The notes: generated from the sequence alone by a model not told the origin. DNA of 64,000 bases from a virus (IMGVR_UViG_3300047300_001121:17389-81388), one strand, 5' to 3'. Positions 4,875 to 50,600 are shown, counted from the stretch's first letter. Program-made: numbers and translations.

Positions 4875-5357
4875 TTGAACACGCTTCACATCACCATCAA
4901 CGGCGAGCCAGCTCACGGCGCGCAGGCTGAGGCTCACTTCGTCGAGTGGGCCCTGGCCCTGGAACAAGAGCACAACGAGAAGCTGTTGGCAGCATGCAAG
5001 GGTGAGCGCACCTCCCTGGCGGCGATCAACGTATTCCAGTTTGCGGCGTTCTCTCCCTTCCGCACGACAGCGGATTGCAACTTGCTCGGCCAGGCCGGCA
5101 TTGAGATCAAGCCCGTCGTCCACTTTCAGGGCAACGTCGATTTTTACCAGGTGCCGCTCATTGACACCGGCGAGACGTGCGAGGTCGCCTATCTTTTCGC
5201 GCTTGATCACCCCCGGCTTGGGTGCAGACCCGTCCGTACGTCACGGGTCTTGAAAATGAATGACGACGGCTCATTCGAGACGCTGAACACCATCTACAAA
5301 CCGGCACCCGAGGTGGAGCATCTGCCGGCCGATGACACGGAAGGCGGTGCAGCATGA
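4875..5357 (+). CDS. Hypothetical protein
   Basis: DHPRLG...RTSRV...FETLNTIY motif; AGGAG RBS with TTG start. Confidence 0.7.
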   Translation: MNTLHITINGEPAHGAQAEAHFVEWALALEQEHNEKLLAACKGERTSLAAINVFQFAAFSPFRTTADCNLLGQAGIEIKPVVHFQGNVDFYQVPLIDTGETCEVAYLFALDHPRLGCRPVRTSRVLKMNDDGSFETLNTIYKPAPEVEHLPADDTEGGAA

Positions 5358-6013
5358 TCCGCTTTCACTTCGATCGCAAATTCATCCCCCTGGTGGCGCC
5401 GTTCGCAGCCAGGGCTGACGTCCGCTACTACTTGTGCGGCATCCGCGTGGAAGCCGCCGGTGATCGCCCTGGCGTGTACATCGTCGGATGCGATGGCCAC
5501 CGGCTCACGGTCGCCTACGACCGCACCGGCAGCATTGAGGGCGTCGAGGGCGGCTTGATCATGCGCGTGCCGCCTCAGTTCATCTCGGCATGCAAGGCGC
5601 GCTCATCATCGCCGCTGAAGGTCATCTGCGAGGGCGACCGGATCTCCGTCGGTGTTGAAGGCGGAGCTGCGCACAACGAGCGCGAGACGTACGTGATGCC
5701 GGGCAAGCCCTGGATTGAGGGCAACTACCCCAGGTGGAGGGACATCCTGCCCTGCTGGGCGGACCTGAAGCTCGGTTTCGCATCTGAGGTGAGCTCGGTC
5801 TACCTGGCCGACTACCTGAAGCTCAACAGCGGCGGCCGCTACGGCGACGGACTCGTGTTCTGGCAAGAGAAGGCCGACTCACCCATTGTGGTGCAGCACA
5901 CCTCGCAGCCGGAGATTGTGTCGATCCTGATGCCGCGGCGCACGGATGGCTCTGAGTTTCTGCGCAAGAAGTTGCCAGAGATCGCGGCCGGAAAGCAAAA
6001 GGTGACGCCATGA
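5354..6013 (+). CDS. DNA polymerase III beta-clamp-like domain protein
   Basis: DVRYYLCGI, DGHRL, EGNYPRWRDILP, ILMPRR. Confidence 0.7.
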   Translation: MIRFHFDRKFIPLVAPFAARADVRYYLCGIRVEAAGDRPGVYIVGCDGHRLTVAYDRTGSIEGVEGGLIMRVPPQFISACKARSSSPLKVICEGDRISVGVEGGAAHNERETYVMPGKPWIEGNYPRWRDILPCWADLKLGFASEVSSVYLADYLKLNSGGRYGDGLVFWQEKADSPIVVQHTSQPEIVSILMPRRTDGSEFLRKKLPEIAAGKQKVTP

Positions 6014-6333
6014 ATTGCAAACCAGGCGACCTGGCAATCATTGTCAATTGCGATTTCCCCGCAAACATTGGCAAGCTCGTGTCCGTGCTGAGGCCGGCCG
6101 ACATGAACGATTACCACTTGGGACCAAATGAGAATGATGGCTTTCTCTGGGAGTGCGAAACGCTCAGCGACGGCATCATTGGATGGGACGAAGGGGACAG
6201 CTACTCAGCCAACAAAGCAGGCGGCCTGATTGCTCTTACCGACAGCTATCTGAAGCCAATTCGCGACCCGGGCGACGACGCCGCTGATGAGATGGTGTTG
6301 CGCACCGGCAAGCCACAGGAGGTGACGGCATGA
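6010..6333 (+). CDS. MNCKPGDLA-family hypothetical protein (paralog of 19319-19639)
   Basis: Shared N-terminus and LxPxR C-terminal motif. Confidence 0.7.
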   Translation: MNCKPGDLAIIVNCDFPANIGKLVSVLRPADMNDYHLGPNENDGFLWECETLSDGIIGWDEGDSYSANKAGGLIALTDSYLKPIRDPGDDAADEMVLRTGKPQEVTA

Positions 6334-6472
6334 CCCACAAGACCATCTTCACCTGGGTGTATGCCGTCGTGCTCTCACTCGGCATCACCGTCGCATTCAC
6401 CGACGTGTTTGTCTGGCGCGCCGAAAAACCCGAGCCCTGCGGCTGCAATCAACCACCACAAAAGCACAAAAA

Positions 6473-6727
6473 ATGACCACGATCGAATACAGCTACAAGC
6501 ACCCGGACCTTGATGTCCCGATTGAATGCACCCTGGACTGCGAGCCGCCCCAGCGCGGAGCTCGAGAGCACGGCACCGGCCTGCAACTTGAGCCCGATTA
6601 CGACGCATCCGCAGAGCTCACATCAGCTCGCGTCGGAGGCGTGGAGATCATCACGCTGCTAAGCGAAGACCTGGTGTACGAGATTCAATCTGCCGCACTC
6701 AGGCATTTGCAGGAGCCGTGCCTGTGA
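6473..6727 (+). CDS. Hypothetical protein
   Basis: Operon-packed ORF. Confidence 0.6.
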   Translation: MTTIEYSYKHPDLDVPIECTLDCEPPQRGAREHGTGLQLEPDYDASAELTSARVGGVEIITLLSEDLVYEIQSAALRHLQEPCL

Positions 6728-7251
6728 TGGATCAAGCAACACGAGACCTGGTGCTGGCATACGTGCGAGCACATTCCGCCGACGTCGGCGAGTGCTGGGA
6801 ATGGCAGGGCGGCATGACGCGCGGCACAACCCCTGCGGCGCGCTTTCCCGGACCCGTCAAGCTGCCGAACTCGGTACGCAAGGCCGTCCTGCTGGCCACA
6901 CTAAAAATCTCACTGGGTAAGCGCTACGCCAGACCAAAGTGCGGCAACTTCCGCTGCGTAAACCCAGAGCATGTCGTGGCCGTGCCGTTGCACAACATCC
7001 GTCGAGAGGCAGCGAGCAGGACCAGCTACGGAAAAAGCATTGCCCGCCGCGCTGCAATCTCGAGAACCAAGCGCTCGCAGTCTCCGCTGACCAACGAGAT
7101 GCTGCAAGAGATCCGCGCATCAGAAGAGAGCAACAAACAACTGGCCACCCGCCTCGGGTTTTCAGTGCGGACCATCCGCATTGCACGCAAGGGCTACGTG
7201 CATGAGAAATTGACAGCAACACCGTTCACAGGATTAGGAGCAAGAAAATGA
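6727..7251 (+). CDS. HNH-like protein with C-terminal HTH (possibly degenerate)
   Basis: CWEWQG...CGNFRCVNPEH. Confidence 0.6.
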   Translation: MDQATRDLVLAYVRAHSADVGECWEWQGGMTRGTTPAARFPGPVKLPNSVRKAVLLATLKISLGKRYARPKCGNFRCVNPEHVVAVPLHNIRREAASRTSYGKSIARRAAISRTKRSQSPLTNEMLQEIRASEESNKQLATRLGFSVRTIRIARKGYVHEKLTATPFTGLGARK

Positions 7252-8063
7252 GCAATACCCGATTTAACAAGGGCGACACCGTCTATGACCTTCACGGGCG
7301 ACAAGGCGCATACATTGCGTCTTACGGTGGCTACCACTTGGTTGCGCCCGAATACGATGCCGGCGACTACGGCGAGCCAACCTGGGGCACTCCCGAGCAG
7401 TGGGATCAGATCTTCATCAAGCCGCCCACACAGAAGCTTGAGACCAAAATCGACGAGCTGGACAAGCTCATTACCGAGAAACGGGATGAGCTCAAGCGTA
7501 TCAACGAAGAGCTCGATCAGGCTGGCCGCCGGCGCCAAGAGCAACTGAAGAAGCTCAAGCAGCATCAGGCGCTGCAACGCATCGAGGACTACCTCGACGG
7601 CAAATTCACGCACTTCCTTGAGGTGCCGGAATACTACCCACCAAAAATCGTCGCAGTCGACGATGCCCTGAAGAGGGGCGGCATTGATCGGTGGGACACG
7701 CCGCTCAAGTTGCTCACGCTCTTTGGCGACACCAAGGGCGATCTGCAGTGGCGAATCAATCGCTACAGCGATGGCAGCGGGAGCAGCAATGTCGAGGTCT
7801 ATCCAGTTGAAAACGAGGAGGAGGCAATCGCAATCGTGCGCCGCCTGTACGCCGAGGCGGTAGAGGACTGGCGCATCCAGGAGAAGAAGCACTACGGCCG
7901 CGCCATCTACTGGACAGACAAGTGCCCTGATGGATGGATTGAGGCGCCCGATGATCTGCGCGCCTACCTGAATGCAGCAGCCGTCGAGAGAAGGCAGGCC
8001 GATCTGATCAAAGCCAAGGAGGCGCTGGCCAAAGCCCAAGCCGAACTGGCCGCGCTGCAATAA
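7248..8063 (+). CDS. Hypothetical protein
   Basis: LKLLTLFG...WRINRYSDGSG; AGGAG RBS. Confidence 0.75.
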   Translation: MSNTRFNKGDTVYDLHGRQGAYIASYGGYHLVAPEYDAGDYGEPTWGTPEQWDQIFIKPPTQKLETKIDELDKLITEKRDELKRINEELDQAGRRRQEQLKKLKQHQALQRIEDYLDGKFTHFLEVPEYYPPKIVAVDDALKRGGIDRWDTPLKLLTLFGDTKGDLQWRINRYSDGSGSSNVEVYPVENEEEAIAIVRRLYAEAVEDWRIQEKKHYGRAIYWTDKCPDGWIEAPDDLRAYLNAAAVERRQADLIKAKEALAKAQAELAALQ

Positions 8064-15843: not shown

Positions 15844-16199
15844 GGCATCACCCTCCCAATTTCGGCGGCTGCCCGCACGATGGCGCGACGGGTAGCGGCG
15901 TATGGGTCGTCGCCGTGAACCTCATGATGGAGAAAAGGCCAGCCATCAGCGTCGGGCCATTTGACCCATGTCGCTGCGTTTCGCACCTGGAAGTCGATTT
16001 GCAACTTCACCGCCAGCCGCAGCGCATCGCCATCGTCGTCAAGTGGGTTCCAGCCAGGGAAGTATTCGATGTCGTTGAAGGAGTCGACCAGCAGCAGCCC
16101 AGGCACTTCGTATTCGTAGGCGGGACACTCAACCCACTTCCATTTTTCACCAGTCGCATTTGCAGCGAGCCCCAACAGTTCGCGATCGGTATCAGCCAC
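15840..16199 (-). CDS. Conserved phage protein
   Basis: WNPLDDDGDALRLAVKL...ATRRAIVRAAAEIG. Confidence 0.75.
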   Translation of the reverse strand: MADTDRELLGLAANATGEKWKWVECPAYEYEVPGLLLVDSFNDIEYFPGWNPLDDDGDALRLAVKLQIDFQVRNAATWVKWPDADGWPFLHHEVHGDDPYAATRRAIVRAAAEIGRVMP

Positions 16200-19768: not shown

Positions 19769-20281
19769 ATGAAGGTCAAAGACCAGATCAAGGTGCGTCG
19801 CGAGCAGCTGGGCATCAGCGTCAACGAGCTCGCAAAACGTCTTGGTGTGTCTTCTCAGGCCATTCGGCACTGGGAGAACGGGCGCAGTTTCCCGGGTAAG
19901 TCGAAGACCGCTGCGCTGGAGACGGCGCTGAGCCTCAACATCGACTGGACCGAGGGCTCCAGGGCCGCCGCCAAGCGGCCGCAGATTTCGGGTCTGATTG
20001 ACCCCAACGATGTCTCGCTGCTGCTGAACATAGCGCGGCTGCCGACGCCGGCAAAATCACTCATCGCCGACCTGGTCGAGATGTACGTGACGCTGGACGG
20101 ACGTGCGGGCAGCTTCGCGCATCGAGGTAAAGAGAGCAGCGCAGAGGCTTTTCACGAAAAAGAATCGCAAGGAGAAAGTGCCCGTGGTACGAAAGCTACA
20201 AGAGCACCCAAGCCGGGTGCAAAAGGCAGCAAAAACGAAGAGCCCGACAAGCGTCATTCAACTCGTCGAAAGGCGGCGTGA
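19769..20281 (+). CDS. XRE-family HTH repressor (CI-like, no S24 peptidase)
   Basis: RREQLGISVNELAKRLGVSSQAIRHWENG; divergent from the replication operon. Confidence 0.8.
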   Translation: MKVKDQIKVRREQLGISVNELAKRLGVSSQAIRHWENGRSFPGKSKTAALETALSLNIDWTEGSRAAAKRPQISGLIDPNDVSLLLNIARLPTPAKSLIADLVEMYVTLDGRAGSFAHRGKESSAEAFHEKESQGESARGTKATRAPKPGAKGSKNEEPDKRHSTRRKAA

Positions 20282-20477
20282 CCCGCAGATCATCGAGCAT
20301 TTGCAGGCTCTCCTGGAAGAGGCGAGGCAGGGTAAGGTGGTTGGGTTCATCGCCGCGGTCCACTACGGTGGCAAGGAGTTCGGGTACGTTGGGTCGGGTT
20401 CGATGTGCGACTGCCCAACGCTCGGGATCGCGTCGGCGCACAAGCTCGCAACAAAACTGTTGCATCACAACAAATAG
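20178..20477 (+). CDS. Hypothetical protein overlapping the repressor 3' end
   Basis: AAGGAG RBS plus GTG; LQALLEEARQG. Confidence 0.65.
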   Translation: MPVVRKLQEHPSRVQKAAKTKSPTSVIQLVERRRDPQIIEHLQALLEEARQGKVVGFIAAVHYGGKEFGYVGSGSMCDCPTLGIASAHKLATKLLHHNK

Positions 20478-20489
20478 TTGACGTATACT
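20460..20489 (+). promoter_or_regulatory. Promoter of the ncRNA array with tandem operators
   Basis: TTGCAT-18-TATACT; operators at 20449 and 20468. Confidence 0.6.
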
Positions 20490-20734
20490 GGGAGCACGAA
20501 TTGCCATTCGCCATCTCGTAGATGTGGTCCGGCGCAATGCCGGGACTCCTAGACAGCGTGCTGCAGCTGAATCTACGGCGCAGATGACACCGGGAAAGAC
20601 TGGGCCATCACACCAGCGGTAGCGCGTATTGCAAGCGCGCGGCGATCACCGCCAGGCAAGTTGCCTCCTCATCGTGCAGGGAAACCGACGGTGAAGTTTG
20701 GAGGGGGCGCCGGGAAAGCACCGGCCCGCTGATG

Positions 20735-20849
20735 TGATGGTGAATGCGCGAGCTGACGTGACCGAAGGAACCTCGGGCGGATAGGACAAACGGGTCGCAA
20801 CCGTACCTTGTAACGCCGCCATGCCGGAGATCAGCGCCGGCCACCATCA
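20735..20849 (+). ncRNA. C4 antisense RNA-like element
   Basis: TGATGGTGAATGCGC-GCTGA...GCCGGAGATCAGCGCCGGC-CACCATCA matches the recalled C4 consensus; GCTGA/TCAGC loop pairing. Confidence 0.7.
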
Positions 20850-21304
20850 AAGTGCAGGCCGTATCGCGTAGCAAAGCCCGGGGATCGCAAGGTCGGCTCG
20901 GTGGCTCCGGTGAAGACAACCGCGATGACGCCCGGGAAAGACCGGGGTATGACGGCTCGTCGATGTGTCAACGATCAGGGTTCGCCGTCCTCGCCCTGAT
21001 GCCGGACGATACGTAACCGGCACCAACAAGGAAGCGGCTCAGCCAAAGCGCAGTCTCGTGAACGGGGGCTGTTAACCTGCTGAGGTCGGGCGCGCGTCAC
21101 CGTGCCGGGGGCTGTATCCCGTGGGCCGCTTCCTTGTTGGTGATTGCGTTGGATAAATTCGGCTTCTCAGGTAAGGATACGCCCTGACACCAACACCCAG
21201 TGCGCGCTGGGATACCACGCGATGACAACGTACGGAAAGACGTGCGCGGATCGCTGTAAGGCCCGCTGGGACCGACGAGAATCGGATGCGGATGGAAGTT
21301 CCGT

Positions 21305-21332
21305 AGGGCTCGCTTCGGCGGGCCCTTTTTTT
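21305..21332 (+). terminator. Intrinsic terminator
   Basis: AGGGCTCGC-TTCG-GCGGGCCCT followed by a T run. Confidence 0.9.
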
Positions 21333-21344
21333 GTGGTGAGTATG

Positions 21345-21383
21345 CAACAAACAGTTGTGACGCCAACAAAAGGTTGCGATAAT
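21345..21383 (+). promoter_or_regulatory. Promoter with tandem operators
   Basis: TTGTGA-17-GATAAT; CAACAAACAGTTG and CAACAAAAGGTTG. Confidence 0.65.
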
Positions 21384-21410
21384 GGTGACCCGAGTTTGAA
21401 GGAGGTTCAA

Positions 21411-21548
21411 ATGTTTCACTGGATGTGGTTGATCGTCACCCTTGAAGTCGGCTTCATGCTGGGTCTTCTTGTGGCCGGCCTGATTCACACGGCGCGCACG
21501 GAAGATGACTGCGAGGAGGCCTGCAGCAAGCAGTCCTTTGGTGTGTGA
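21411..21548 (+). CDS. Small membrane protein
   Basis: AAGGAGG RBS; single TM helix. Confidence 0.6.
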   Translation: MFHWMWLIVTLEVGFMLGLLVAGLIHTARTEDDCEEACSKQSFGV

Positions 21549-21922
21549 AGTGTCAGCACTGCGGCCATTCTGAGACCGACGTCGTCGAGTCGCGTGTCCT
21601 CATGGGCGGTGCATACGTGCGCCGCAGACGCAGCTGCCCTGAGTGCGGCAAGACATTCTCGACCTACGAAATTGATGGCGGCATCTGGGGCACGGTGAAG
21701 AAGTGGGCCCTGGGCAGTCGCCTGCCGGCGCTCGAGAAGAAGCACAAGCTCAATCGCCGCAACGCCAAGATCGTGGCCATGATCAAAGCCGGCCACCAGT
21801 ACAAAGACATCGGCAAGCAGTTCGGCATCGCCAAGACAACTGTCAGCCATATAGCCAGGCAAGCTGGCATCCCGTCGCGCAAGCGACCCAAGATCGCAAC
21901 CCCATGGAGCGGCCTCGTATGA
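21545..21922 (+). CDS. NrdR-type zinc ribbon fused to HTH
   Basis: MKCQHC...VVESR...RRRRSCPECGKTFSTYE; no ATP cone. Confidence 0.7.
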   Translation: MKCQHCGHSETDVVESRVLMGGAYVRRRRSCPECGKTFSTYEIDGGIWGTVKKWALGSRLPALEKKHKLNRRNAKIVAMIKAGHQYKDIGKQFGIAKTTVSHIARQAGIPSRKRPKIATPWSGLV

Positions 21923-36389: not shown

Positions 36390-36446
36390 TTCAACCCTTA
36401 CGCGCCAGGGACTTGCAGAAGAACCGCTCGTCGAGCAGGAGGATTG

Positions 36447-36517
36447 AGCTCGAGAGCGGAATCGAACCGCTGTCCCAGGTTTTGCAGACCTGTGCCTAAC
36501 CACTCGGCCACTCGAGC
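36447..36517 (-). tRNA. tRNA-Cys(GCA), CCA not encoded
   Basis: GCTCGAG acceptor stem, CAGGT-CTGCAAA-ACCTG, GGTTCGATTCC, U73. Confidence 0.9.
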
Positions 36518-38694: not shown

Positions 38695-41600
38695 TCAGTC
38701 GACGCGCTCGAGCTCTTTCTTGACTGCGGCGCGGATCTCTTTCGGCGCGGTGGCGGCGACACGCTGAGCCTTGCTCTTGTTCGCTTCCTGCACGCGCTTG
38801 TTGATCTGGCCAGCATCGATGGAAATGCGGCTCTCTGGGTTGTTGCGGTTCCAGTCGGCGAGCTCTTGCTTGGCCTCTTCGATGAGGTCGGGCTTCTTCT
38901 CGATGCGGCCGCGGGCCCACTTGTCGGCGATCTCCGTCTCGCGCAGCTTGTTCTGTGTGATCAGGTTTTGCTGGGCGCCGGTTGCCTCCTGCACCTGGGC
39001 GACGGCCTTGGGTTGGAATCCAAGCGCCTTGGCAAACGCGTCGTACGCATCGGTGTCAACCACCTTGCGGCCCTTCTGGTCGCGGTAGTAGCCCATCGTG
39101 GCCATGTCGGCAGACTTGATCCAGTTCTGCGCAGCCACCGGTGCAACGGCCTCCGCCGCTTTGCCAAACTCGCCCTGGGCGATGCTTGCAACGCCGGTGC
39201 CGATGTTGGTGAAGAACGTGCCGGCCGGGCCCAGGATCTCGAGGTAGTCGCGGCCGTAGTCGCGCTTCTTCGTCAGCAGGCCGGTGCCTGGCACGAGGTT
39301 GCCCAGACCCATGCGGCCGGACAAGTCGATCGGCACACCAGGCAAGCCGGACAGCCCGCTCATCACGAACTCGGCGCCAGCCTGGCCCAGGATCGAGGCG
39401 AAGAATTCCTTCTTGGCCTGCTTGCTGTCGAAACTGCGGCCCAGCACGCGCTGCATGAAGCCGTCGATCACGTCGTCCAGATCATCGGCGCCAGGCATGC
39501 CAGTCAGACCGGAGGCCAGGAACAGCACGGCGAGCGCCAGGCCGACGGCCTTCTTGCCCTCGGGCCCGTTGCCCCACATGCGCCGCAGGAACTCGACGTA
39601 GCCGATCGAATACTGCTTGAACGTGAACAGGGTGCCACCCACCGCGCCACGCGCCCATGCCGGCTTGTTGCCCTTGTTGTAGACGCCCTGGGTCTCGGCA
39701 ATCGCCTTCTGGGCAAATGCCATCGGATCAGCCATGCCCTGGTCGCGCGCCAGCTTGTAGGCAGCGATGAAGGTCACGCGGCGGTTGAACTGTTCGGCCG
39801 CCGAGAACACCTTGCCCCAGCCCAGCTGCAGCTTGGCCATGGCATTGTTGATCTTGGCCGCGGCGTCGCCTGCTTTGGTGCCGTCACCGGATTGCAGCTG
39901 GCCCTTGCCCTGCGCCTGAGCCATCAGCTGGTGAACTTCCTGCGGGCTCACGATGCCTTCGTCTTCGGCGCGCTTCAGAGCGGCCGCGAGCTCGTCGTCA
40001 TTGCGGATGCCGCGGGATGCCATCTTCACGGCCTCGCCCATGCGCTTGGCTGCGCCGGCGGCGCCACCGAATTGCGACAGGTACGGCAGCGTCATGGTGA
40101 ACGGCTGGGTCAAGTTGACCATGGCCGATGCGATCGATCCGCCGATGAACTGCGTGAACAGCATGCCGCGGATGGCCTGAGCCTCTTCGCGCGGGTTCTG
40201 CACGTATTCCATTAGGCGCACAGCCGCGTCCTTGACGTCGCCGTCGCGCTGGTCAATGGCTTGCACAGAGCGGCCAATCTCGCCGGCATGCAGGTTGGTC
40301 GACGTCTGGCGGGCGTTGCTGTACACGAAGCCAGCGAGCACGCGGCCGACGTCTTCGCTGAAGCCGTTGATACCCTTGCGCTCAATCAGTCGCTTCATGG
40401 CCGAGCGGTTGGTCTTGGCCATCTTGAGGTACTGCTGGAACGCCTCTGACTTGGCGTCGACACCAGACTCTTCCAGGCCCAGCGATTCGCCGAACAGCGC
40501 CAGCGTCTCAGGCGTGACGCCACTGAAGAGCTTGTAGCTCTCCTGGCTCATCGTGCCCTGGGTGACGGTCGCGTCGGGGTACTGCTCTTGCATCTCGCGA
40601 GCCATCTTGTTGGCGTCGCGCTCGCTCTCGAACATCGAGAAGTAGAGCTGCTCACCATCTTTGCCAACGGCGTACACGGTGTACTCACCGAAGCGAGACA
40701 GCGGAGCGTAGCCGCGGGCCATCAAACCGATGGCCTGGCCAGCCTTTTCCTTGATGGCGCGCTTGCTGTCCTCGAGGACCTTGGCGCGCGTTGGCTGTTG
40801 CTCGATCAGCTGGTCGAGGTGAGCGATCATCGCGTTGAGGGCGCCGTCCAGATTCTTGGCGTCGAGCGCTTGCTGACGCACACCTTCGGAGTCGGTGCCC
40901 AGGTAGCGCAGCATGTCAGAAACAGCGAGGTCGGACAGGCTCTTGTTGGTCGCGCGACGGAACTCGCGGTACAGGCCGATCTGGCGGTCGTTCAGACCGA
41001 AGAGCTCTTTGAGCTCGTCGTTGGTGAACACGACGCCAGCCTTGTCGACGTCTTCGGTCTCGACGATGTTGCCTTCGTCATCGCGCGTGTACTTCAGCGT
41101 GCCGCCGAAAATCGGGTCACGCAGGGCCTTGACGTCTTCAGCCGACAGGGGCGTTTTGCCGATGTCCTTCCAGCTCTCGAGCTTGGGCAGGATGTTGGGC
41201 GCCAGGTCGGCGGCGCGGGTGGCGTAGACCGACACGTCGTTGATGAAGCGCTGCACGGCGTCGAACACGCGCTTGAACTGCGGGTGCTTCTGCGCCAGGT
41301 TGTACTGCGTGCCGATGGTGCGATCCCACCAGCTCAGCTTCTTGCTCGTCTTCAGCAGGTCGCCGAGGTTGTAGTTGGCCGTGACCTTCATTTGGCTCAG
41401 GTCATCGAAGTAGGGGCGGTCAGCGCTCTTGCGGATGTCCGGGTTGGTCGGGTCAAAATTGCCATTGTTGCCGATGGCGGATTTGATCTGCTCTGGGCGG
41501 AAGGCGATGTAGACGTTGCGAACCTCGAATCCTTTTCCGCCACGAATGATGACGCCATCGGCACCAGCTTTCTCTGCAGCCTCGATGATCTTGTCGTGGT

Positions 41601-44600
41601 TGTAATCAAACCACTTGTCCGGGGATCCAGTCGCCTTTCGCTCATACGGATTTTGCAGGCTCAGGTAAACCGGCATGATGTTGGCGCCACCATTGCCAAA
41701 GCGTGGATTCTCCTCGTCACCGAAGTTTGCGCCATCGGCCTGCTCTGCATAAACGCCAGCAGGAATTGGGCGGTTGGTGAAGAAGAACCCCTTATTTCCA
41801 CCTCGGTAAACGTAGTTCCGCCCGGACCGCTCGCGATCGAAAACGGAAAAGTCAGACGCTGTGCCGTGATACACCACCAGAGGATTGCCATCAGCATCCA
41901 CAACCTTCGAGTCGCCGAACCACTCCTTGAACTCGGGCGTGTCGGTCTGGCGATCGCGGCTGAACAGAGCAACGCCCTGGCCGACGGTCTCGCGCATCTT
42001 GTCGGTGACGTCGAAGCCGGACTGCTCGCCAGTCAGTCCGACGCCGGCGCTTCCGTCAACCTCTTTGATGACGGCGTCGCCGGTATATGCCAGCCGGTAT
42101 TCGTTCGCTTCTTTGCGGCTATCGGTTCGGAACAGGCGTTCACCGCTGTCCTCGTCAAACACGACATACCTGCCGCCAACATCTTCGCCGCCAAACACAA
42201 CGGAACTCAGCTTCTCGCCACCAAGCTTCGGCAGCAGCTTGCTGATGGCCTGCGGTACGATCTTGTCGTAGAAGGTCTTCATGCCTTCGCCGCCGACTCT
42301 GAGGCCCTCGCCGCTCAGTGTGCGGATGTCCTTCAGGTCTTCGTAATCAGGCGCGCCAGGCGTACCCTCGACTTGGCCTTCGCGTGAGTCCATCTTCTGG
42401 ACGATCTCTTTGCCGACGATGTCCTCGAGCTCTGCGGCAGTGAAGTCGCCGTTCTTGATGTTGCTGCCGCCGGCCATCACGTTGATGTAGTAGCCTTTGG
42501 CGGTCGGCTCGTAGCTGATGGAGTCAACCTGCTTGCTCAGGTCATAGCGATCGGCAGACTGCTCGCCGTTGACGAATGCGACTTTGTCGTAGCCACCCTC
42601 GACAGCCATCATCGCAATGCGCTTGAGTGCGAGGTTGAGCCAGCCTTCGGTCTTGGTGACGAAGGGAGCAAGCGGTACGCCCTGGTTGCTTCGGACAAGT
42701 TGCTCGGTGAGTTGCGATTTCTCGTCGGACAGCCTGTTCCACTCGGCTTGTAGCTCGGGCACATCTTCTGAATTTACCGTCTTCGCAATCTCGCGCAGAC
42801 GCGCAGTGATGGCCTGCATACGCGCCTCGATACCGGGGCGGTCAACTTCCTGCTTGAACCCCTTCTTCTTGCCCTCTTGACCCCAGTCCGATTGCAGCTC
42901 TTCCACGAAGAGCACGCGCTTGCCGTCGGCATCGGTGCGGTCGTTGACGCGGATGTGGGCGAGGATGTTGGGCTCATCCCAGTGGCTGGACAAATAGCCG
43001 CCGTTCATGCGATCGGCTTCGACAATCATGTTGTCGCCAGTCTCGCGCTCGCGGTCGGCGCGGAAGCGCTCAGCGCCTTCGCGGTCAAAAAAGCCTTCGC
43101 CTTCGATGTCACCATTCTCGTTGACGACACGATAGTCGCCAGCCTTCTCGGGCAGCGTGATCAGCAGCTCACGGTAGTTTTCGCCGCCTGGCAGGGTGTA
43201 AGCGATGTACTTGGCTGGGCGCTCAGGCTCAGGCGCGTATTCCTCGTCGGAGTCTTCCGGAATCCACACGCCTTCGTTGGGACTCTGCGTCAGCGTCACT
43301 TCGGAGATCTTCACGCCGCTGTCGTCAAGGTACGCGACCAGGTCGTCTTTGGTAAGCTTGTTCTTGCCCTGCAAATCCAAGAAGTCTTTGATACCGGACC
43401 ACTCAATTTCGTCGGCTTTAATACCGAGCTTCGATGCGTTGGCGGTGAGCCATTGCTTCCACGCCGGCGCGGCCATGGTGGCCAGGCGCTGCGGCACTTG
43501 CTCGATGGCGCGTTGCAGTTGGCTGTAGAAAGCCGGGCGCGCCGGCGATTTCAGGACTTGTCCGGCTGCTCCGGCTCGAACTTCGCCGCCTGCATCCGAT
43601 ACACCTCGTGCGCCGTCTTGCCCGAGGTCGCCTCGGAGGCGCGAAGCTGCTCTTTCAAGTCCTTGACGTAGGGGTGATCCGAACCATGCTTCGCCTCCAG
43701 GCGCGCGATCTCCGCCTTCAGCGATTCGATCAATGTACTCACGATAGTTTTCCTTCCCGACAACAACAGTGTCGTAGTTCTGCATGGCCGCAAAGGCCAC
43801 TCCATCCATGCCACGAACTTCCGCAGCGATGTCGTTGAGCAGCTCACGCTTCTCCTGGATCGCACGCTCAATGCCGCCAGGTGCCAACAACTCGTCGCGC
43901 AGATCCTCGTCCCAGCGCATCGAGATCTCGGGCACGTATTGCAAACGCACACCGATAAACGATTCGCCCGTCACGCCTTTCGGGGTCACGCGGGGATCCA
44001 CCGCCATTGTAAATCCATCCTGCCCGCGAGACGTGAATTTCTCGAGAATCGGCATGGCAGTCGCGAGGTCTCGTTGCGACTTGAAGTAGATCTCGACGCC
44101 AGGGCGAGCATTGGCGCTGTCGTCCTTCGGGCCCAGCACCTTTGACACAAAGATGTCGTACTGATTGTTCTCTTCAGCAATGCGAGCGATCTCGGCCATC
44201 ACCATGGACGGGTCATGCTGGCCTTTGGTCGCAGTCCATTCGGTGTCGAACGAGGCCTCGACCGTGCCGCCGTACAGACCCGAAGTGGGCATGACGCGGG
44301 CCGCCACAACGCTGTCGTCGCCAACCAGAATGGAGAGCACGCGGGCCTGGGCGACGGATGCCTCGTCGTTGTTGGGCACCTTCTCGCCTTGCTGGATGCT
44401 CCAGCCGGCCAGGTAGCGCTCAACAGGCGTGGCTTCGATGTTCTCTTCAAACGAGCCGCCTTCGCCGGTCTTGCTGGTCCAACCCTTTTGACCCCAGAGC
44501 TCCTTCTCGGCGAACCAGGCGATGGCTTGTAGATCTGGCGGGGTGACATTGATGCCGCGTTCCGCAAGCGCCCGGGAGACTTTGTCCATCACATCTGCGC

Positions 44601-47600
44601 CGAAGCCAAAGGCACCGGTCACGCGCGATCCGTCGGCATTCCACACGCCGGACACACCAGTCTCGGCGACGGGCGGGATGCGCGGCAAATCAGCGCCACG
44701 CACCATGTTCGCGGCGCGGCGTAGCATGCGGGCGGCCCAGACGTCGATGGTGGCCATGTTGGACTGGCCAATCAGGTTCAGCGCGAAGTTGCGGGCCTTG
44801 GGTGCCTGACCGGGCTCGATCACGCGCCACATGTCGACCAGCGCCTTCATGGCGTTGGTGGAGTTCATGCCGTACAGCTTGCCGCTGATCTGACGAATCT
44901 TGTCGGCGGCCGGGTACTTGCTGGCGTCCTTGCCTTCGTCGATGTAGGCGGAGAACTTGGCGAGCTGGTCGTTGAAGTCGCCGGCCATGAAGCGACGCAT
45001 GACGTCGAGCGAGAATCGCCAGTTGGTGTCGACCGGCGTGTTGGGGGACGTTGCACCCAGCAAGTCAGCCAGCAGATCGCCGGAGCCGCCGTATTCGCGA
45101 CGCAGCACTTCGGCGACGTTGCGATACCAGGTCTGGTGACCAATGATGATCTGAGCGTTCTTGTCGCCCTTGGCGGCGCGCTCGTAGATGTCAGAAACCA
45201 GGCCCTCGAACTTGTCGGCAACCTTGCCCAGCCACACGGTATCGGTCTTTGCCGGCGCGCGATTGCGGCCCGGGGGCACGTTGAACGCGTAGGGCAGGGC
45301 CTGGAACTTGGGCTTCTCGGATCCGGGGATCGGGTTGCCTTCGTCGTCCTGCTTGAGCTCGATGCCAACCACAGTCAATGGCGCCCAGCCTTGAGTGGTC
45401 GGGAATGCCTTCTTGATGCGGCGAGCCTCGTCGACAATAGCCTTGACCTGCTTCTTGCTCAGGTTGAGCTCTTTGGCGTCGGCGTCGATCGCTTCGATCT
45501 CTTTGACATCAAGGCGCGCAGCCTTGGCGCGCACGCGCTGCTCGCGGTCAATATCAAGCTTGTAGTCACGAGCCGTACTCTTGCGGACGTCAGCCTCATT
45601 GACCGAGAACACGCCGTTGTTGAAATTGGCGGATTTCAGTTGCTCAGGATTGAAAGCAACGAAGACGTCTGACGGATCGTCGATGTACGAGCTGTAGCCA
45701 GGGCCTGAATCGACGACGTTGAGAATGATCGCGCCGTCGGCGCCCCAGCGACGACCCTCGCGCACGACGTCATCGGTGGTCATGCCGATGCTGTCCTCTT
45801 CCTCGTAGCTTGATGCGCGACCTGCTTCTACCTGGCGGTCGGCATCCTCCTCCGTGTACACGTAGTCACCGGTGGGCTCGCCGTTCTCATCGAGCATTCG
45901 GTACATCGGCTGTTCGCGCTCGCCATTCCACAGGGCGCCGTTGAAGTCTTCTTCGTTGGCGCTGCGGATGTTGACGAACAGGGCGTAGTAGCCCGAAACG
46001 TCTTCGCCGCTCGGCGCTTCATCGCCGTAGTTATCGAGCAGGTGCTCCTCGGCTTCCGCGCGGGTGTCATAGACGTTATCCATGTACCCGTCTTTCGAGT
46101 ACACCTCGAACTTGCCATCGTCGGTCTCGAAGATGTCGTAGCCATCGTCGAGCAGCTCCTGCACCGTAGCTTTGTCGCGGAGCTCGATCTCGCCACCGCG
46201 ACGGCTGTAGTAGGTCTGCGCCATAGCGAGATTCGGCGTCGTGAAGATGCCGAGGTCGCCACGCTCTTTGCCGCCGGGCGTCTTGAAGTAGTTGAAGCCG
46301 CCCTTGTCGGTGCCGTGGTAGACGACCATCGGCTCGCCGTTGGCAGTGACAACCTTCGACACGTCAAGGTTGGTTGCCCAAACGCCACCGTCCTTGTGTG
46401 CCTGCTCCCAGTCGCCGAACCACTGCTTGAAGCTGGGCGTGCGCACTTGCACCCACTGGCGCTCGCTGAGCATGGTGTCGGTGCCATCAGGCGCCTTCAT
46501 CCATTGGTCTGTCCCTTTGTACTTGGCCTCGACTTCGGCGTATTCGCGCTTGGCGATTTCGACATCGCTTTCGCGCGCCGGGCTGAAGCGAATGGCGGAA
46601 CCGATGCGCTCGAGCTCAGCGTTGGCCTGTTCACGGCTATCAACCGGAACGGTCAGCGTGCCGGCGCGCAGCGTGGCGCCAGGGATGGCGTCGACGTTGA
46701 TGTCGGCGATCTCCTTCGACATGAGGCCCTTTTTGATCGGCTCTTGCTTGACCTCGGGGGCTTCTGCGCCCGGGATCTTTTCGCCGTTCTGGATCGAGCC
46801 CATTTGGCCCAGGTACTCAGGCGTGATGGAGCGCTTGCCCAGCATGATCACCACGCCGGGCTGCGTGCCGTCGCGGCGGTCCAGGTATCCGTCGTAGCCG
46901 CTGTCGAGCACGGCCGACTCGAAGGCCTCGAGGCTCTTGCCTTTGCGCAAGCCCAGAGGGTCCTTGTTCATGTCGTAGACGTTGGTCAACGTCGTGCGGT
47001 GGGCATGCGTGCCCAGGCCCGGAAGCGGCGTGATGCCGGTGCCCTTGTCGACATAGAAGTAGATGCGGTCGCGCAGGCGCTCGTCGGCGGCGTTTTGGAA
47101 CTGCTCGCGGTTGGCATCTTGCAGGCCGGCGCCGTGTGTGGCGGACGACAACACCTTGCGCGGTTGCTGGCTGAAGTGATAGCCGGTGAGCGTGAGGCCC
47201 TCGGGTCGGTCTTCGCTCTTCTTAATTTTCTGCTCGGCCTTCAGCTTCTCAGCAGCCATGGCGCGCTGAGTGATGCCCGAGTCCTTGAGGTAGCCGGCCA
47301 TTGCATCGACAAACGCGGCACGCACCTCATCGAGGTCCTTGACGAATCGGTCGGCCTGGTAGCCGGGCTGATTGAGTGACTTGACCAGGCGATCGATCAC
47401 GCGCTTCACCTGGGTGGCCAGCTTGGCGATGATGCCCTTGGCCTCGGCGCCGTTGTCGGCTTTGATCTTGGCAAACACCTCGAGCCAGAATGCCTTGTGC
47501 TTGAGCAGGTTGCCGCCCAGGTCGGAGACAAGCTCCTCGAGCTCGCCACCTTGCTCCTCAGACAGCGCGGCATCACCGCGTTGCGCGGCCTTCTCGGCGC

Positions 47601-50600
47601 CGTAGTAGTTCTCGCGGAAGGCTTGCGGATTGCTGACCTTGGTGCGCACCACGGCAGCAATGGCGTTCCAGGCTTCTGGATTGGTGTCGCGCAGGGTGTG
47701 GAAGAACTCGTGGCCAAACACGGCCAGCGGATTCACCGTGGTTTCGCTTGCCACGAAGATGGTGTCGGGGCGGCCAGAGAACACGAAGCCGTCTCCGATG
47801 CGACCATCCTGAGCTTCGTAGAACACGACCTGCTTACCCAGCAACCCGGCAACCTTCTGGATCATGTCGGCTTCGGCTTGCGACAGCGCACGAGGCTCGT
47901 CGCCGCGCTTGGCGCTGGTATTCTTCGGCAGCTCGGCCGGCTTGAGGATCTTGAGGTTGTGCTGCTTGCCGTTGGCCTTGAAGCTGAAGATCTTGGCTTC
48001 CTCAGCCTTTTCTTCTTTGGTGAAGTTCTCGGCCTTGCCAGCGGCAACAGCATCCGACAGCGGCTTCTTCGCGGCACGCGACTTGGACCAGGCCTTGAAC
48101 TCGTCCTGGGTCATCTCGGTGATGGCGCCCAGACCAGTCCAGCCCGGCTCGTAGTTGGCCAGGTAGCCTGCACGAGCATCGGCTTCGGTGGTGAAGCCCA
48201 TCATCACTTTGTGCTCGTCGAACGACCCGTCCTGATTGACCTGGTCGATGACGTAGATCTTGTCGCTGTCTTTGCGCGGACCAAGGAAGACGTCGAGCTT
48301 GTCGCCGTCAGCGCCGACCGTGCCCTGGAACTCACCGTAGTGGTAAGCCATCTTGGTTTCCCACGGCGTACCATCGGGAGACGTGCCACGGCGGATCGAG
48401 CCCTGCGGGTTCTCGATCTTGATCTTCATTCCGTTGAGCTCGATGACGTCGGACTTCTTGTAATTGCCGGCGGCGATCTGAGCCTCGGTCGGCTCAAGCA
48501 AATCGTTCTTCGGGCTGGCGGCCGCGGTATGAGCCAGGGCGTCGATGCGATCGTTGATGGCCTTGCGTGCGAGTTGCGCATCGGCAGCGCCGTCCAGCTT
48601 GAATTTCTGGCCGGTCTTGCTGTTGACCATCCAGAACTCATTGCCGTCACGCTGCACGGTCTCGAAGCCGTTCTCGGCGAGCTGTTGCACCACAGCCTTG
48701 CGCTTGCGCATAACGGCAGGGCCTGCACCGGCGGGGGTCTCGACGCGCGGCGCCTTCACCTCGGTCATGCTGCCAATACCGCCTTGCTCCACGGCGCGCG
48801 CAGCATCCAACGGAGTGTTGCCTTGCGCTACGTTTTGTTGCGCGACAGGCGTGGCAGTAGGCTCAGGGGCGGCTGCGGGCTGCTCCCGAGTGGTGGGTTG
48901 TTGGGTGGTGAGACCTCGCTGCGGACCAGGCAGAGCCTTGGGCCCGGGCAACATGTTGTCGACGCGCACAGCTTCGGCGTCGATGATGTTGGGGTCGAAG
49001 AACTGGCCGTTGAGATCGGCCGGAGCGACTGCGGTGCCGGCAGTCGGCGGAACGGCGAGGGCGGTGCCAGGCTGCTTCGGCGCTTCGTTTTGCATGACGA
49101 AGCCGGTGCCGGACTTGGCGGTGGCGAGCACTTGCTCGACCTGGTTGATCGCCTTTTCGCGGATCTGCGGATCCAGATTCGGGTTGCGCGCGATGCCCAG
49201 GGCGTACAGGAATTCGTTGCTGGTCTCCGGGCCAAAGCCGCGGATCTTGTCGAGCATGCCTTCCTGGTTCAGGTCGGCGTAGACCGCCGCAGCGCGTGCG
49301 GCGATTGGATCTTGATTCACCGCATCCTGTGCGGCTTGTGCAGCTTGCCCGGCCTGCTCGACAGCACCGGTGGCCACCACGGCGCGCGAGAGCACGCTGC
49401 CAGGCTTCTGCGCCTGGTCGGCAACGGATTGCAGCGGGTTGGGTGCGCTGGGCTTGGCCACAAAGCCGCCGCCAGCACCAATGGGTCCGCCAACAACAAA
49501 GCCACCCAGGAAGTCGCCAGCGGTGTTGCGCAGGGCATCCTGGCCCGGCTCGCGGCCCAGGGCGATATTCTCGCCGACGTTCTGGCCAACCTTCTCCGAT
49601 GTTTCTTGCAAGCCTTCAGCGGCTGCGCCACCAACACCGCCAATTGCGGCGCGGCCAGCGCGTGATGCCGCCGAGTTGCCGAGCATAGTCGAGATGCCTT
49701 TGCCCACCAACAGGTCCTCGATGACCTTGGTGTTGAAGGCACCGCCTGCGGCACCAGCAATGGCGGAGAGGCCGCCGGCCCAGCGGGCAGCACTGTTGAT
49801 CACGGCGTTGCGAGCTTGCTGCTGGTCACCGCTGCGCTTGAATGCTTCAGCATAGACGGGCACGCTTTGCAGCAGCTGCTCGTGTGTCATGCCTTGGATG
49901 GTTTGGGCGGTGGTCTGACGAACTTCGTCGGCGGCCGCGCCACCGGTCATTGCGCCACCCACACCAGAGCCGGTGACTCGAGCGGCCATAGCAGCCGATT
50001 GCGCGGCTTGCGTGAGCTCGGCAGCCTTGGCAGTGTCGCCAGCCAATTCAGCGGCGCGTGCGGCCTTGGACAGCGATGCAACGCGTTGTGCCGGGCCCAG
50101 GGCAGGCAGCAGGAAGGAGGCAAGCGAGCCAAAGCCGTTGGCGGCCATCATGCCCCAGCCTTCGCCGCTACCCGGCAGCTGCGCGTCACCGCTCAGTAAG
50201 TCGAGCACACTGCCTTCGACGCCGGCCTCTTGGCGAGCGCGCTGGCCACCAGCGGTCATGCTGTCACGAATCGCGCCAGACACCGGCTTGAGCGGGTTGA
50301 AGCCTTCGTAGTCCTCGGTGCCGGTCGCCTTGTTGGCGATAGCAGCCATGCCCTCGCCGAACATTTGCGCAATACTGCCCACGCCTTCAACGGCAGAGGC
50401 GGCAACTTCTTTGGCGTAATCTCCGGCGGTCGCACCAGGTCCGCGCGGATTGACGTTGCTGTACCAGGAGCCGGACTTGCCGACGCTGCGGCCGGTCTTG
50501 TTCAGGATTGCCGGGACATAGGCCTGCGTCTCGGCCGGCATGTAGCGCAGCCAGGCGTCAGGCGTTCCGTTCTTTTCGGCAGTGGCCAGGGCAGTGCGCA

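Follow-up and report, generated by a model that had tools for sequence, protein, structure and literature searches.

A small, widespread RNA hairpin recurs within a modular non-coding RNA locus of a phage genome

A stretch of 64,000 nucleotides (nt) of viral DNA (IMGVR_UViG_3300047300_001121:17389-81388; hereafter "the window," to which positions refer unless another record is named) contains a gap of approximately 930 nt, at 20482-21410, that holds no credible gene and carries three copies of a short hairpin motif, which we call H. What are these copies, and what do they mark? An initial annotation, made from the sequence alone, described them as repeats of an RNA scaffold belonging to no named family, each with a closing stem around an unrelated interior, and proposed a protein-binding or processing handle on variable cargo. 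The three motifs are genuine and represent a small phage RNA hairpin that is widespread but uncatalogued; they are one module type only, within a larger modular RNA of ~840 nt that also has a widespread domain shaped like transfer RNA (tRNA) and domains with long stems. The picture of a conserved handle on variable cargo is partly supported.

Three copies of a covarying hairpin

The pattern GATGAC, four to eight free bases, and GGAAAGAC occurs four times in the 64-kb window, always on the plus strand, where shuffled sequences lead one to expect 0.01 matches; the whole 81-kb virus record contains the same four. Three of these are the H copies, whose exact strings were confirmed at the positions first reported for them (Table 1). 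The fourth, at 82-100, overlaps the N-terminal coding portion of a membrane-protein open reading frame (ORF) on the minus strand, has unpaired flanks that form no stem, and scores E = 0.29 with the hairpin model, and for these reasons we regard it as a chance match. Only three significant matches were returned when the window was searched with this model. The H copies are irregularly spaced (341 and 297 nt apart), and only the motif of ~21 nt recurs, the sequence between copies being unrelated.

Table 1. Modules and transcription signals in and around the gap, with window coordinates.
Feature	Position	Strand	Description
RNA promoter	20460-20489	+	-35 TTGCAT 20460-20465; 18-nt spacer with operator-like CAACAAAnnGTTG; -10 TATACT 20484-20489
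D1 (unit A cargo)	20517-20577	+	three-way junction: P1 20517-20523/20571-20577, P2 20529-20543, P3 20554-20569
H copy A	20583-20603	+	GAUGAC-A, stem CCGG/CUGG (one G-U pair), loop GAAAGA, then G-CCAUCA; 32.2 bits (model includes copy A)
D2	20605-20740	+	multi-branched; 15-bp closing stem CCAUCACACCAGCGG / CCGCUGAUGUGAUGG; fold z-score -5.4; inverted repeat I2
D3	20735-20849	+	P1 GAUGGUG/CACCAUC; hairpin 1 loop AGCUGA; variable middle; hairpin 2 GCCGG-AGAUCAGCG-CCGGC
B domain (unit B cargo)	20862-20927	+	closing stem UAUCGCG/CGCGAUG; nested helix with GNRA hairpin GAUC-GCAA-GGUC
H copy B	20924-20946	+	GAUGAC-G, stem CCCGG/CCGGG, loop GAAAGA; 33 bits
D4	21021-21142	+	multi-branched; 21-bp closing stem CACCAACAAGGAAGCGGCUCA / UGGGCCGCUUCCUUGUUGGUG; fold z-score -5.35; inverted repeat I1
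C domain (unit C cargo)	21143-21220	+	putative fold including AUUGCGU/ACGCGAU closing stem; single-sequence fold prefers other pairings
H copy C	21221-21246	+	GAUGAC-AA, 6-bp stem CGUACG/CGUGCG (one U-G pair), loop GAAAGA; 21.6 bits
Intrinsic terminator	21305-21332	+	9-bp G+C-rich stem, UUCG loop, U7 tail; sole plus-strand terminator within the gap
Second promoter	21355-21383	+	TTGTGA-17-GATAAT; two CAACAAAnnGTTG motifs; precedes next operon

In general form, H consists of RGAC-A followed by a covarying stem of 4-6 base pairs (bp), which is closed by an invariant G-C pair and capped by the loop GAAAGA. Thirty distinct copies with the exact loop align as nnUGRC-(A/G)-5 bp-GAAAGA-5 bp-(A/G)-C, with no variation in the loop or in the closing G-C pair (30/30). 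Every one of the 148 aligned cells is paired (148/148), a figure that is inflated and partly owed to construction, as the instances were picked for a stem of at least 4 bp; compensatory changes nevertheless occur at four of the five pairs, and the claim that the stems differ and still keep pairing extends from the window to many phages. The 5' flank of U-G-R-C plus one purine reads UGAC-A in copy A and UGAC-G in copy B, and copy C (UGAC-AA) has one extra base. The full string GAUGAC had been called invariant, which is true within the window; family-wide, only U-G-R-C-(A/G) is kept. Likewise, a GAUG/CAUC extension of H is present in the window and a few relatives and is not conserved across the family. 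Two of the three window stems contain G-U pairs, which would be A-C on the opposite strand. H appears to be recognized through its loop and flanks rather than through its stem, which is free to vary. Two structural readings were rejected: as a minihelix with a 3' ACCA (ACCA is not general), and as a K-turn or box C/D element (tandem G-A is not present on both strands).

Conservation outside the window is strong. The exact 20-mer consensus of H was found in at least 119 IMG/VR phage contigs. Among cultured phages, it is present exactly in phages of Xanthomonas and as near-matches in phages of Stenotrophomonas, Ralstonia, and Bacteroides; matches in Mycobacterium phages were set aside, being inside a coding sequence. 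Related loci were fetched and are labeled L plus a number, and covariance-model searches covered these loci together with 157 genomes. Among the 54 distinct GGAAAGAC contexts of the fetched loci, 28 form a stem of the H type, where roughly three would be expected by chance (a rough estimate), and ~1 Mb of related loci yielded 43 stem-validated instances, near-variant loops such as GAGAGA included.

The absence of a named family also held up against Rfam 15, for the window as for its relatives. At gathering thresholds, the whole window matched only two tRNAs located elsewhere; at E values up to 10, positions 20300-21500 gave only terminator-driven noise (best score 21 bits versus a cut-off of 50); and fourteen related loci and L067 matched tRNAs only. 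A literature search for the sequence of the hairpin gave no match. H is a large family of its own, absent from Rfam 15.

A probable transcription unit of ~840 nt

On the left of the gap that holds the three copies is a small ORF, itself preceded by a helix-turn-helix (HTH) regulator gene (19769-20281); on the right of the gap is a membrane ORF of 45 codons. A PHROG search of the ORFs inside the gap gave no match. The promoter at the left edge of the gap, of the sigma-70 type, was read by eye from its hexamers and 18-nt spacer, and a consensus promoter scan did not list it; its layout, TTGCAY-N18-TAYACT, is kept in 12 relatives, and transcription would start near 20496. The terminator sequence recurs in L008, L009, and L064. 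Folding energy is better on the plus strand (-375 kcal/mol, z = -2.6) than on the minus strand (-344 kcal/mol, z = -1.4), and several stems contain G-U pairs. Because the gap lacks a credible gene, has its own promoter and a sole plus-strand terminator, folds better on the plus strand, and shows these G-U pairs, 20496-21332 is probably one plus-strand non-coding RNA of ~840 nt. The order of the array is D1, H, D2, D3, B domain, H, linker, D4, C domain, H, and tail.

In a search of sequencing runs, the complete stretch was found only in its probable source metagenome. Contigs from RNA libraries of three studies contain the D3 core of a relative only (20742-20842; 7 differences, 93 per cent identical), closed by a different helix. 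These contigs are compatible with expression of relatives and show neither transcription nor RNA ends of this phage.

Cargo domains upstream of H

The domain that precedes copy A, D1, is the cargo of unit A. Its three-way junction has a conserved joining segment, GACUCCUAGA (20544-20553), and a P3 hairpin loop, GUGCUGCA. Twelve further distinct homologs of unit A were recovered from IMG/VR and metagenomes through flanking proteins and DNA patterns, and in an RNAalifold analysis of 13 D1 homologs, 13 of 18 pairs show compensatory changes. The closing stem first assigned to unit A, CATCT/AGATG, was not borne out: the 13 homologs support pairing of CGTAGAT (20517-20523) with ATCTACG (20571-20577) instead, with two compensatory positions, so that P1 (CGUAGAU/AUCUACG) is represented among relatives by versions with GUAGAU and GCACAU. 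CAUCU/AGAUG can form in the window phage, but relatives have AGCTG or AGATA on the 3' side while the 5' side stays as it is, and it is therefore not the conserved stem.

In six relatives, a promoter, a 5' hairpin, D1, GCAGAUGAC, the GAAAGA hairpin, and a terminator make up a stand-alone small RNA (sRNA) of ~150 nt; in the window, L007, L008, L009, L060, and L064, 350-1000 nt of additional structured RNA precede the terminator. Conserved unpaired stretches of D1 are ACUCCUAGAC and the loop UGCUGC. A search of genome contigs with the D1 pattern gave no match, and viral-contig matches to ACTCCTAGACA...GCTGC were rejected, as most of them belong to a coding gene, unrelated to D1, in AT-rich phages. 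The idea that the D1 junction pairs with the next gene as an anti-Shine-Dalgarno element was also dropped, as such pairing amounts to 5-6 bp only.

For the other two units, the closing stems fared differently. The one homolog of the B domain, in a Polynucleobacter genome (L120), keeps the closing stem, with one A-U pair changed to G-U, and has a GCAA hairpin with compensatory arms (AGUA-GCAA-UACU). The C domain had no blastn match in any fetched locus, and its closing stem, for which there is no homolog, competes with an alternative helix formed by GCGAU (21219-21223) and AUCGC (21250-21254). The handle-on-cargo proposal survives in one part, as the same hairpin follows unrelated structured domains, and fails in another, as unit A shows that the unit is not a self-contained closed scaffold.

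Long-stem domains D2 and D4

The closing stem of D2 recurs with changed inner sequence in L007, L008, L009, L060, L088, and L110, and the domain contains an H-like hairpin, GCCGG-GAAAGCA-CCGGC, at ~20708-20726. D4 has a homolog in L064 in which the fold is kept and 12 pairs are changed on both sides. The D2 closing stem and the terminal helix of D3 overlap by 5 nt, the 5' strand of D3 being shared with the 3' strand of D2, and each helix has comparative support. The strands CCAUCA (20605-20610), UGAUGGUG (20735-20742), and CACCAUCA (20842-20849) can accordingly form two mutually exclusive helices. Since both are comparatively supported, this arrangement may be a switch or an inter-molecular contact.

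The tRNA-shaped domain D3

The two hairpin loops of D3 are complementary over 5 bp (GCUGA/UCAGC). Across an alignment of 36 copies, for which pairs were counted, hairpin 1 has the loop GGCUGA(U), and hairpin 2, with the loop AGAUCAGCR, abuts the 3' strand of the terminal helix. We read this layout as that of a tRNA cloverleaf whose "elbow" would be made by Watson-Crick pairs. A covariance model of the family (R2) matches the window copy with 81 bits (E = 7.5e-19), although this copy was in the training alignment; L087 provides an independent near-copy that is 92 per cent identical over 116 nt.

D3 is widely distributed. Its conserved ends were found in 52 IMG/VR contigs and in seven species-representative genomes, six of them of Betaproteobacteria. 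With model R2, it was detected in 3 of 151 sampled Burkholderiales genomes, the query genome included, and once or twice per carrier genome, a pattern of a mobile element and not of a housekeeping RNA. It is present in 132 cultured phage records, for the most part from phages that infect Klebsiella, Escherichia, Pseudomonas, or Salmonella. Of 5426 complete E. coli genomes, 845 carry it, and 237 of its places are on plasmids; it is unannotated among the entries listed. In phage HK620 (L131; positions 16098-16183 of that record), an unannotated D3 lies between pR'/qut and the late terminator and has a compensated terminal helix, GUGGUG/CACCAC; HK620 has D3 but lacks H. A blastn search of cultured phages with the whole gap gave no match, and the short conserved modules were found with shorter queries. 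A literature search for described RNAs in lambdoid late leaders found none that carries D3.

In uncultured relatives, terminase subunits are frequently among the nearest genes downstream of D3 (9 large subunits among 80 neighboring ORFs), and the genes upstream include HTH or S24 repressors and replication genes. In L067 and L122, D3 lies next to tRNA genes, 7-8 nt away. The Polynucleobacter locus L120 contains, on its minus strand at ~6300-7575, a syntenic RNA array of more than 1.2 kb. D3, the B domain, and three hairpins of the H type are part of this array, whose last element is a tRNA-Gly immediately ahead of the second promoter. In Klebsiella phage UPM 2146 (L132, ~88143-91340), D3 is situated in ~3.2 kb without an annotated feature or tRNAs called by ARAGORN; this stretch may be another large RNA array, in a phage of the Ackermannviridae.

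H as a putative boundary element

H copies follow unrelated structured domains, among them the D1 junction, the B domain, and a AUCACUAGAGCGCGAGG...CUGGCA domain. In a sample of 110 distinct contexts, collected with the hairpin as sole criterion and not via D3, a canonical tRNA on the same strand starts 2-6 nt after H in six, and all tRNAs in those H-bearing segments (13/13) are on the H strand. Bacteroides phage BS-TP2 has H, 4 nt, and then an unannotated tRNA-like gene. In D3-bearing loci, the 5' strand of the D2/D3 block, CYAUCA, comes directly after H. Of the three window copies, only copy A clearly has a module close behind it, as D2 begins 2 nt after H there. Stems of at least 15 bp right after H form a tail of the distribution that is absent from shuffled controls. 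In L064, H stands just before the terminator, as copy C does in the window.

What H may do

We tentatively favor the reading that H is a sequence-specific punctuation or handle hairpin at module boundaries, to which we give somewhat less than an even chance. Under this reading, H borders a cargo domain on its 3' side and precedes, by 1-6 nt, the opening strand of the next module closed by a helix, be it a tRNA, the tRNA-shaped D3, or a long hairpin. Cleavage by a host endonuclease would fall where that module begins (RNase P at modules of the tRNA type, with RNase III as a candidate at long stems), and the upstream RNA would be released with H as its last hairpin at the 3' end. There, H would stabilize the RNA and perhaps be read through its invariant loop by a conserved factor; it is the invariance of the loop that suggests such an additional reader. 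The analysis establishes the anatomy of the array, its conservation, the covariation, the strand, and the placement of H just ahead of tRNAs; the single transcript, its cleavage, the protection of its ends, and any partner are inferred.

Several points weigh against this reading. The matches in RNA libraries are contigs of relatives and comprise the D3 core only. Simple end protection needs neither an invariant loop nor invariant flanks, and because the terminator already protects the 3' end of the short D1-H sRNAs, H must do more than cap. Only ~6 per cent of H copies precede a canonical tRNA; helices of at least 8 bp start right after H in 34 per cent of cases versus 24 per cent in shuffled controls, a marginal excess; and a hairpin 2-6 nt upstream of an RNase P site could hinder cleavage. 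In a bolder form, which we think rather unlikely, H is a universal phage tag whose loop and flanks are read by a conserved enzyme of host tRNA maturation (RNase P or a partner). If so, phages of several bacterial phyla would feed arbitrary structured cargo, D3 included, into host RNA processing, and the arrays would be operons whose RNA products act as effectors, in a role during infection or lysogeny that is yet to be discovered.

Other explanations place H in the fold of the RNA or in gene regulation. H might be a structural docking element, whose purine-rich loop and flanks make tertiary or inter-molecular contacts that help a large ornate RNA to fold or multimerize, as in GOLLD and ROOL, and which has no part in processing. 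We consider this unlikely, although docking modules of the tetraloop type are typified by just this combination of a fixed loop and a stem that covaries freely, the large array is rich in long-range features (the D3 kissing loops and two domains with fold z near -5.4), its near-identical strands ACCAUCA, UGAUGGUG, and CACCAUCA could pair alternatively or between molecules, and its relatives adjoin tRNA genes in phages, like GOLLD and ROOL. Docking fits poorly with the minimal contexts in which H also occurs, namely the ~150-nt D1-H sRNAs and single copies directly before ordinary tRNAs; no receptor motif that co-occurs with H was identified, and the conserved single-stranded flanks are left unexplained. 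The stand-alone D1-H unit of six relatives, complete from promoter to terminator, is instead what one would expect if the array encoded trans-acting regulatory sRNAs or sponges, in which H would be a shared module for chaperone binding or stability, and D1, with its conserved loops and CUCCU junction, would carry the seed. The conserved unpaired stretches of D1 agree with this, and prophage leader transcripts are known sources of sRNAs, such as StxS from pR' (PMC7547250). No convincing conserved target emerged, however: the CUCCU junction pairs with the downstream ribosome-binding site by an unspecific 5-6 bp, and the window has a single occurrence of GUCUUUCC, which is complementary to the H loop. 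The position of H directly before tRNAs is also left unexplained, and we find such a regulatory role improbable. A CsrA/Rsm sponge was rejected, as the Rfam match to rsmX covers the terminator only and no central GGA is present in the H loop, a point against CsrA/Rsm binding.

A nut-type role, in which H is a boxB-like site for an N-like antiterminator or another regulator that allows read-through of 21305-21332 into the operon, strikes us as improbable too. H has a shape like that of lambda boxB; in the window and its kin, a promoter flanked by operators lies ~90 nt ahead of H, and a strong terminator and an operon come after it; and D3 has relatives in the Q-controlled late leader of HK620. 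Against this stand the loop, an invariant 6-mer and not a 5-mer in all 30 aligned copies; three H copies in one transcript; a second promoter after the terminator, which makes read-through unnecessary; and a search of the plus strand at 20480-21340, in which no boxA (CGCUCUUA-like) was found with up to one mismatch. The occurrence of H in phages of Proteobacteria and Bacteroides and before tRNAs points to a universal partner rather than to a regulator specific to one phage family, and HK620 has N, Q, and D3 but no H. That the repeats are due to chance or form a DNA-level signal, such as an operator or a recombination site, is scarcely credible. One of the four pattern matches is evidently chance, but the expected number of matches is far below the number seen, and the motif is kept in more than 100 phage contigs. 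The arms covary around a fixed loop, where a DNA operator would show the opposite; the G-U pairs occur on one strand only, and the orientation always matches that of neighboring tRNAs. Two further candidates were discarded. Hammerhead and other small self-cleaving ribozymes gave no Rfam ribozyme match at E values up to 10, no GAAA/stem III follows the hairpin after GAUGAC, and the CUGAUGA/GAAA core is absent. Type III antitoxin or CRISPR-like repeats do not agree with the irregular spacing and the recurrence of only the short motif, and no nuclease is found among the annotated neighbors (defense-system models were not scanned).

Flanking genes and other features of the window

The second promoter precedes an operon with the 45-amino acid (aa) membrane ORF (21411-21548) and a 125-aa protein (21545-21922) with an NrdR-type zinc ribbon (a Pfam match for its L008 relative) and matches to HTH/DNA-binding PHROGs. 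The zinc-ribbon protein is kept directly downstream of the RNA and second promoter throughout the phage group (also in L005-L009, L064, and L120). In L010, the long RNA extension is replaced by an unannotated ORF of ~165 codons (4908-5405 of that locus), which follows the terminator of the sRNA and precedes the second promoter.

With at most one mismatch, 18 occurrences of the motif CAACAAAnnGTTG were counted, versus 1.2 expected, at 20446-20483, at 21345-21379, and at 13 further sites. Each of the two promoters flanking the RNA has the motif within it or next to it, as do other operons ahead of their genes, and it is probably an operator or promoter element of a phage regulator. Genes for tRNA-Met and tRNA-Cys (1335-1410 and 36446-36517) are on the minus strand, opposite to the RNA array and distant from it. 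Also on the minus strand, 38695-50982 is a single ORF of 4095 codons that probably encodes a giant virion or ejection protein.

Significance

The array is made of independently conserved, shuffled RNA modules and exemplifies a class of modular phage RNAs that is widespread but uncatalogued. Amid unexplained non-coding phage sequence, a 21-nt hairpin and the ~110-nt D3 are shuffled like cassettes; neither is in Rfam, and neither is annotated among the RefSeq entries listed. The modules span uncultured phages, betaproteobacterial genomes, classic coliphages (the late leader of HK620 and Stx2 phages), and approximately one-sixth of complete E. coli genomes. Tractable carriers are E. coli with HK620 or mEp460 or a Stx2c lysogen for D3, and phages of Xanthomonas (FoX2), Ralstonia (Adzire), and Bacteroides (BS-TP2) for H; because such hosts carry the modules, the role of phage RNA arrays beside tRNA genes is directly testable.

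Comparison with known systems

D3 resembles a tRNA in its 7-8 bp terminal helix, 3-nt spacer, and hairpin 1, in a central arm of variable sequence, and in hairpin 2, whose 5-bp stem is directly followed by the 3' strand of the terminal helix; its loop-loop contact sits where the D-loop/T-loop elbow does. Unlike a tRNA, it has no anticodon arm, T-loop sequence, or CCA end, its elbow is a 5-bp Watson-Crick kissing contact, and it is called neither by ARAGORN nor by the Rfam tRNA model.

In lambda, the pR'-tR' late-leader unit gives rise to 6S RNA. In Stx phages, the pR' unit gives StxS sRNA (PMC7547250). The D3 of HK620 is inside the same short transcript from pR' to the late terminator; as far as the literature could be searched, no description of D3 in those RNAs was found, and the window RNA follows a regulator gene and not Q.

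Lambda boxB is a G+C-rich stem of ~5 bp with a GAAAA or GAAGA loop. H shares with it the short G+C-rich stem, a purine-rich loop of the GAAA type, the conservation of loop and not stem, and, in the window, a promoter-proximal location upstream of a terminator. It differs in its 6-nt invariant loop (GAAAGA versus a 5-nt GNRA-like loop), in the absence of boxA, in having up to three copies per transcript, in lying directly before tRNA genes, and in its occurrence among phages of different phyla. A partner resembling N was not identified; the neighbors (the HTH regulator, the 45-aa ORF, and the zinc-ribbon protein) were not examined for RNA binding.

The T4 species 1 and 2 RNAs and the RNAs of the T5 tRNA region are stable small RNAs that are co-transcribed with phage tRNA clusters. 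As in relatives of the window array, structured non-tRNA RNAs are strung together with tRNAs and presumably released by host tRNA-processing enzymes; tRNAs abut the array in L067, L120, and L122, although the window array has no tRNA of its own. To our knowledge, the H and D3 modules have not been described for T4 or T5.

GOLLD and ROOL are likewise large (0.6-0.8 kb), highly structured phage RNAs that are often located beside tRNA genes. The window locus does not match their Rfam models; it is a mosaic of shuffled, independent modules rather than one architecture, and the hosts of window-type arrays are Betaproteobacteria and Gammaproteobacteria.

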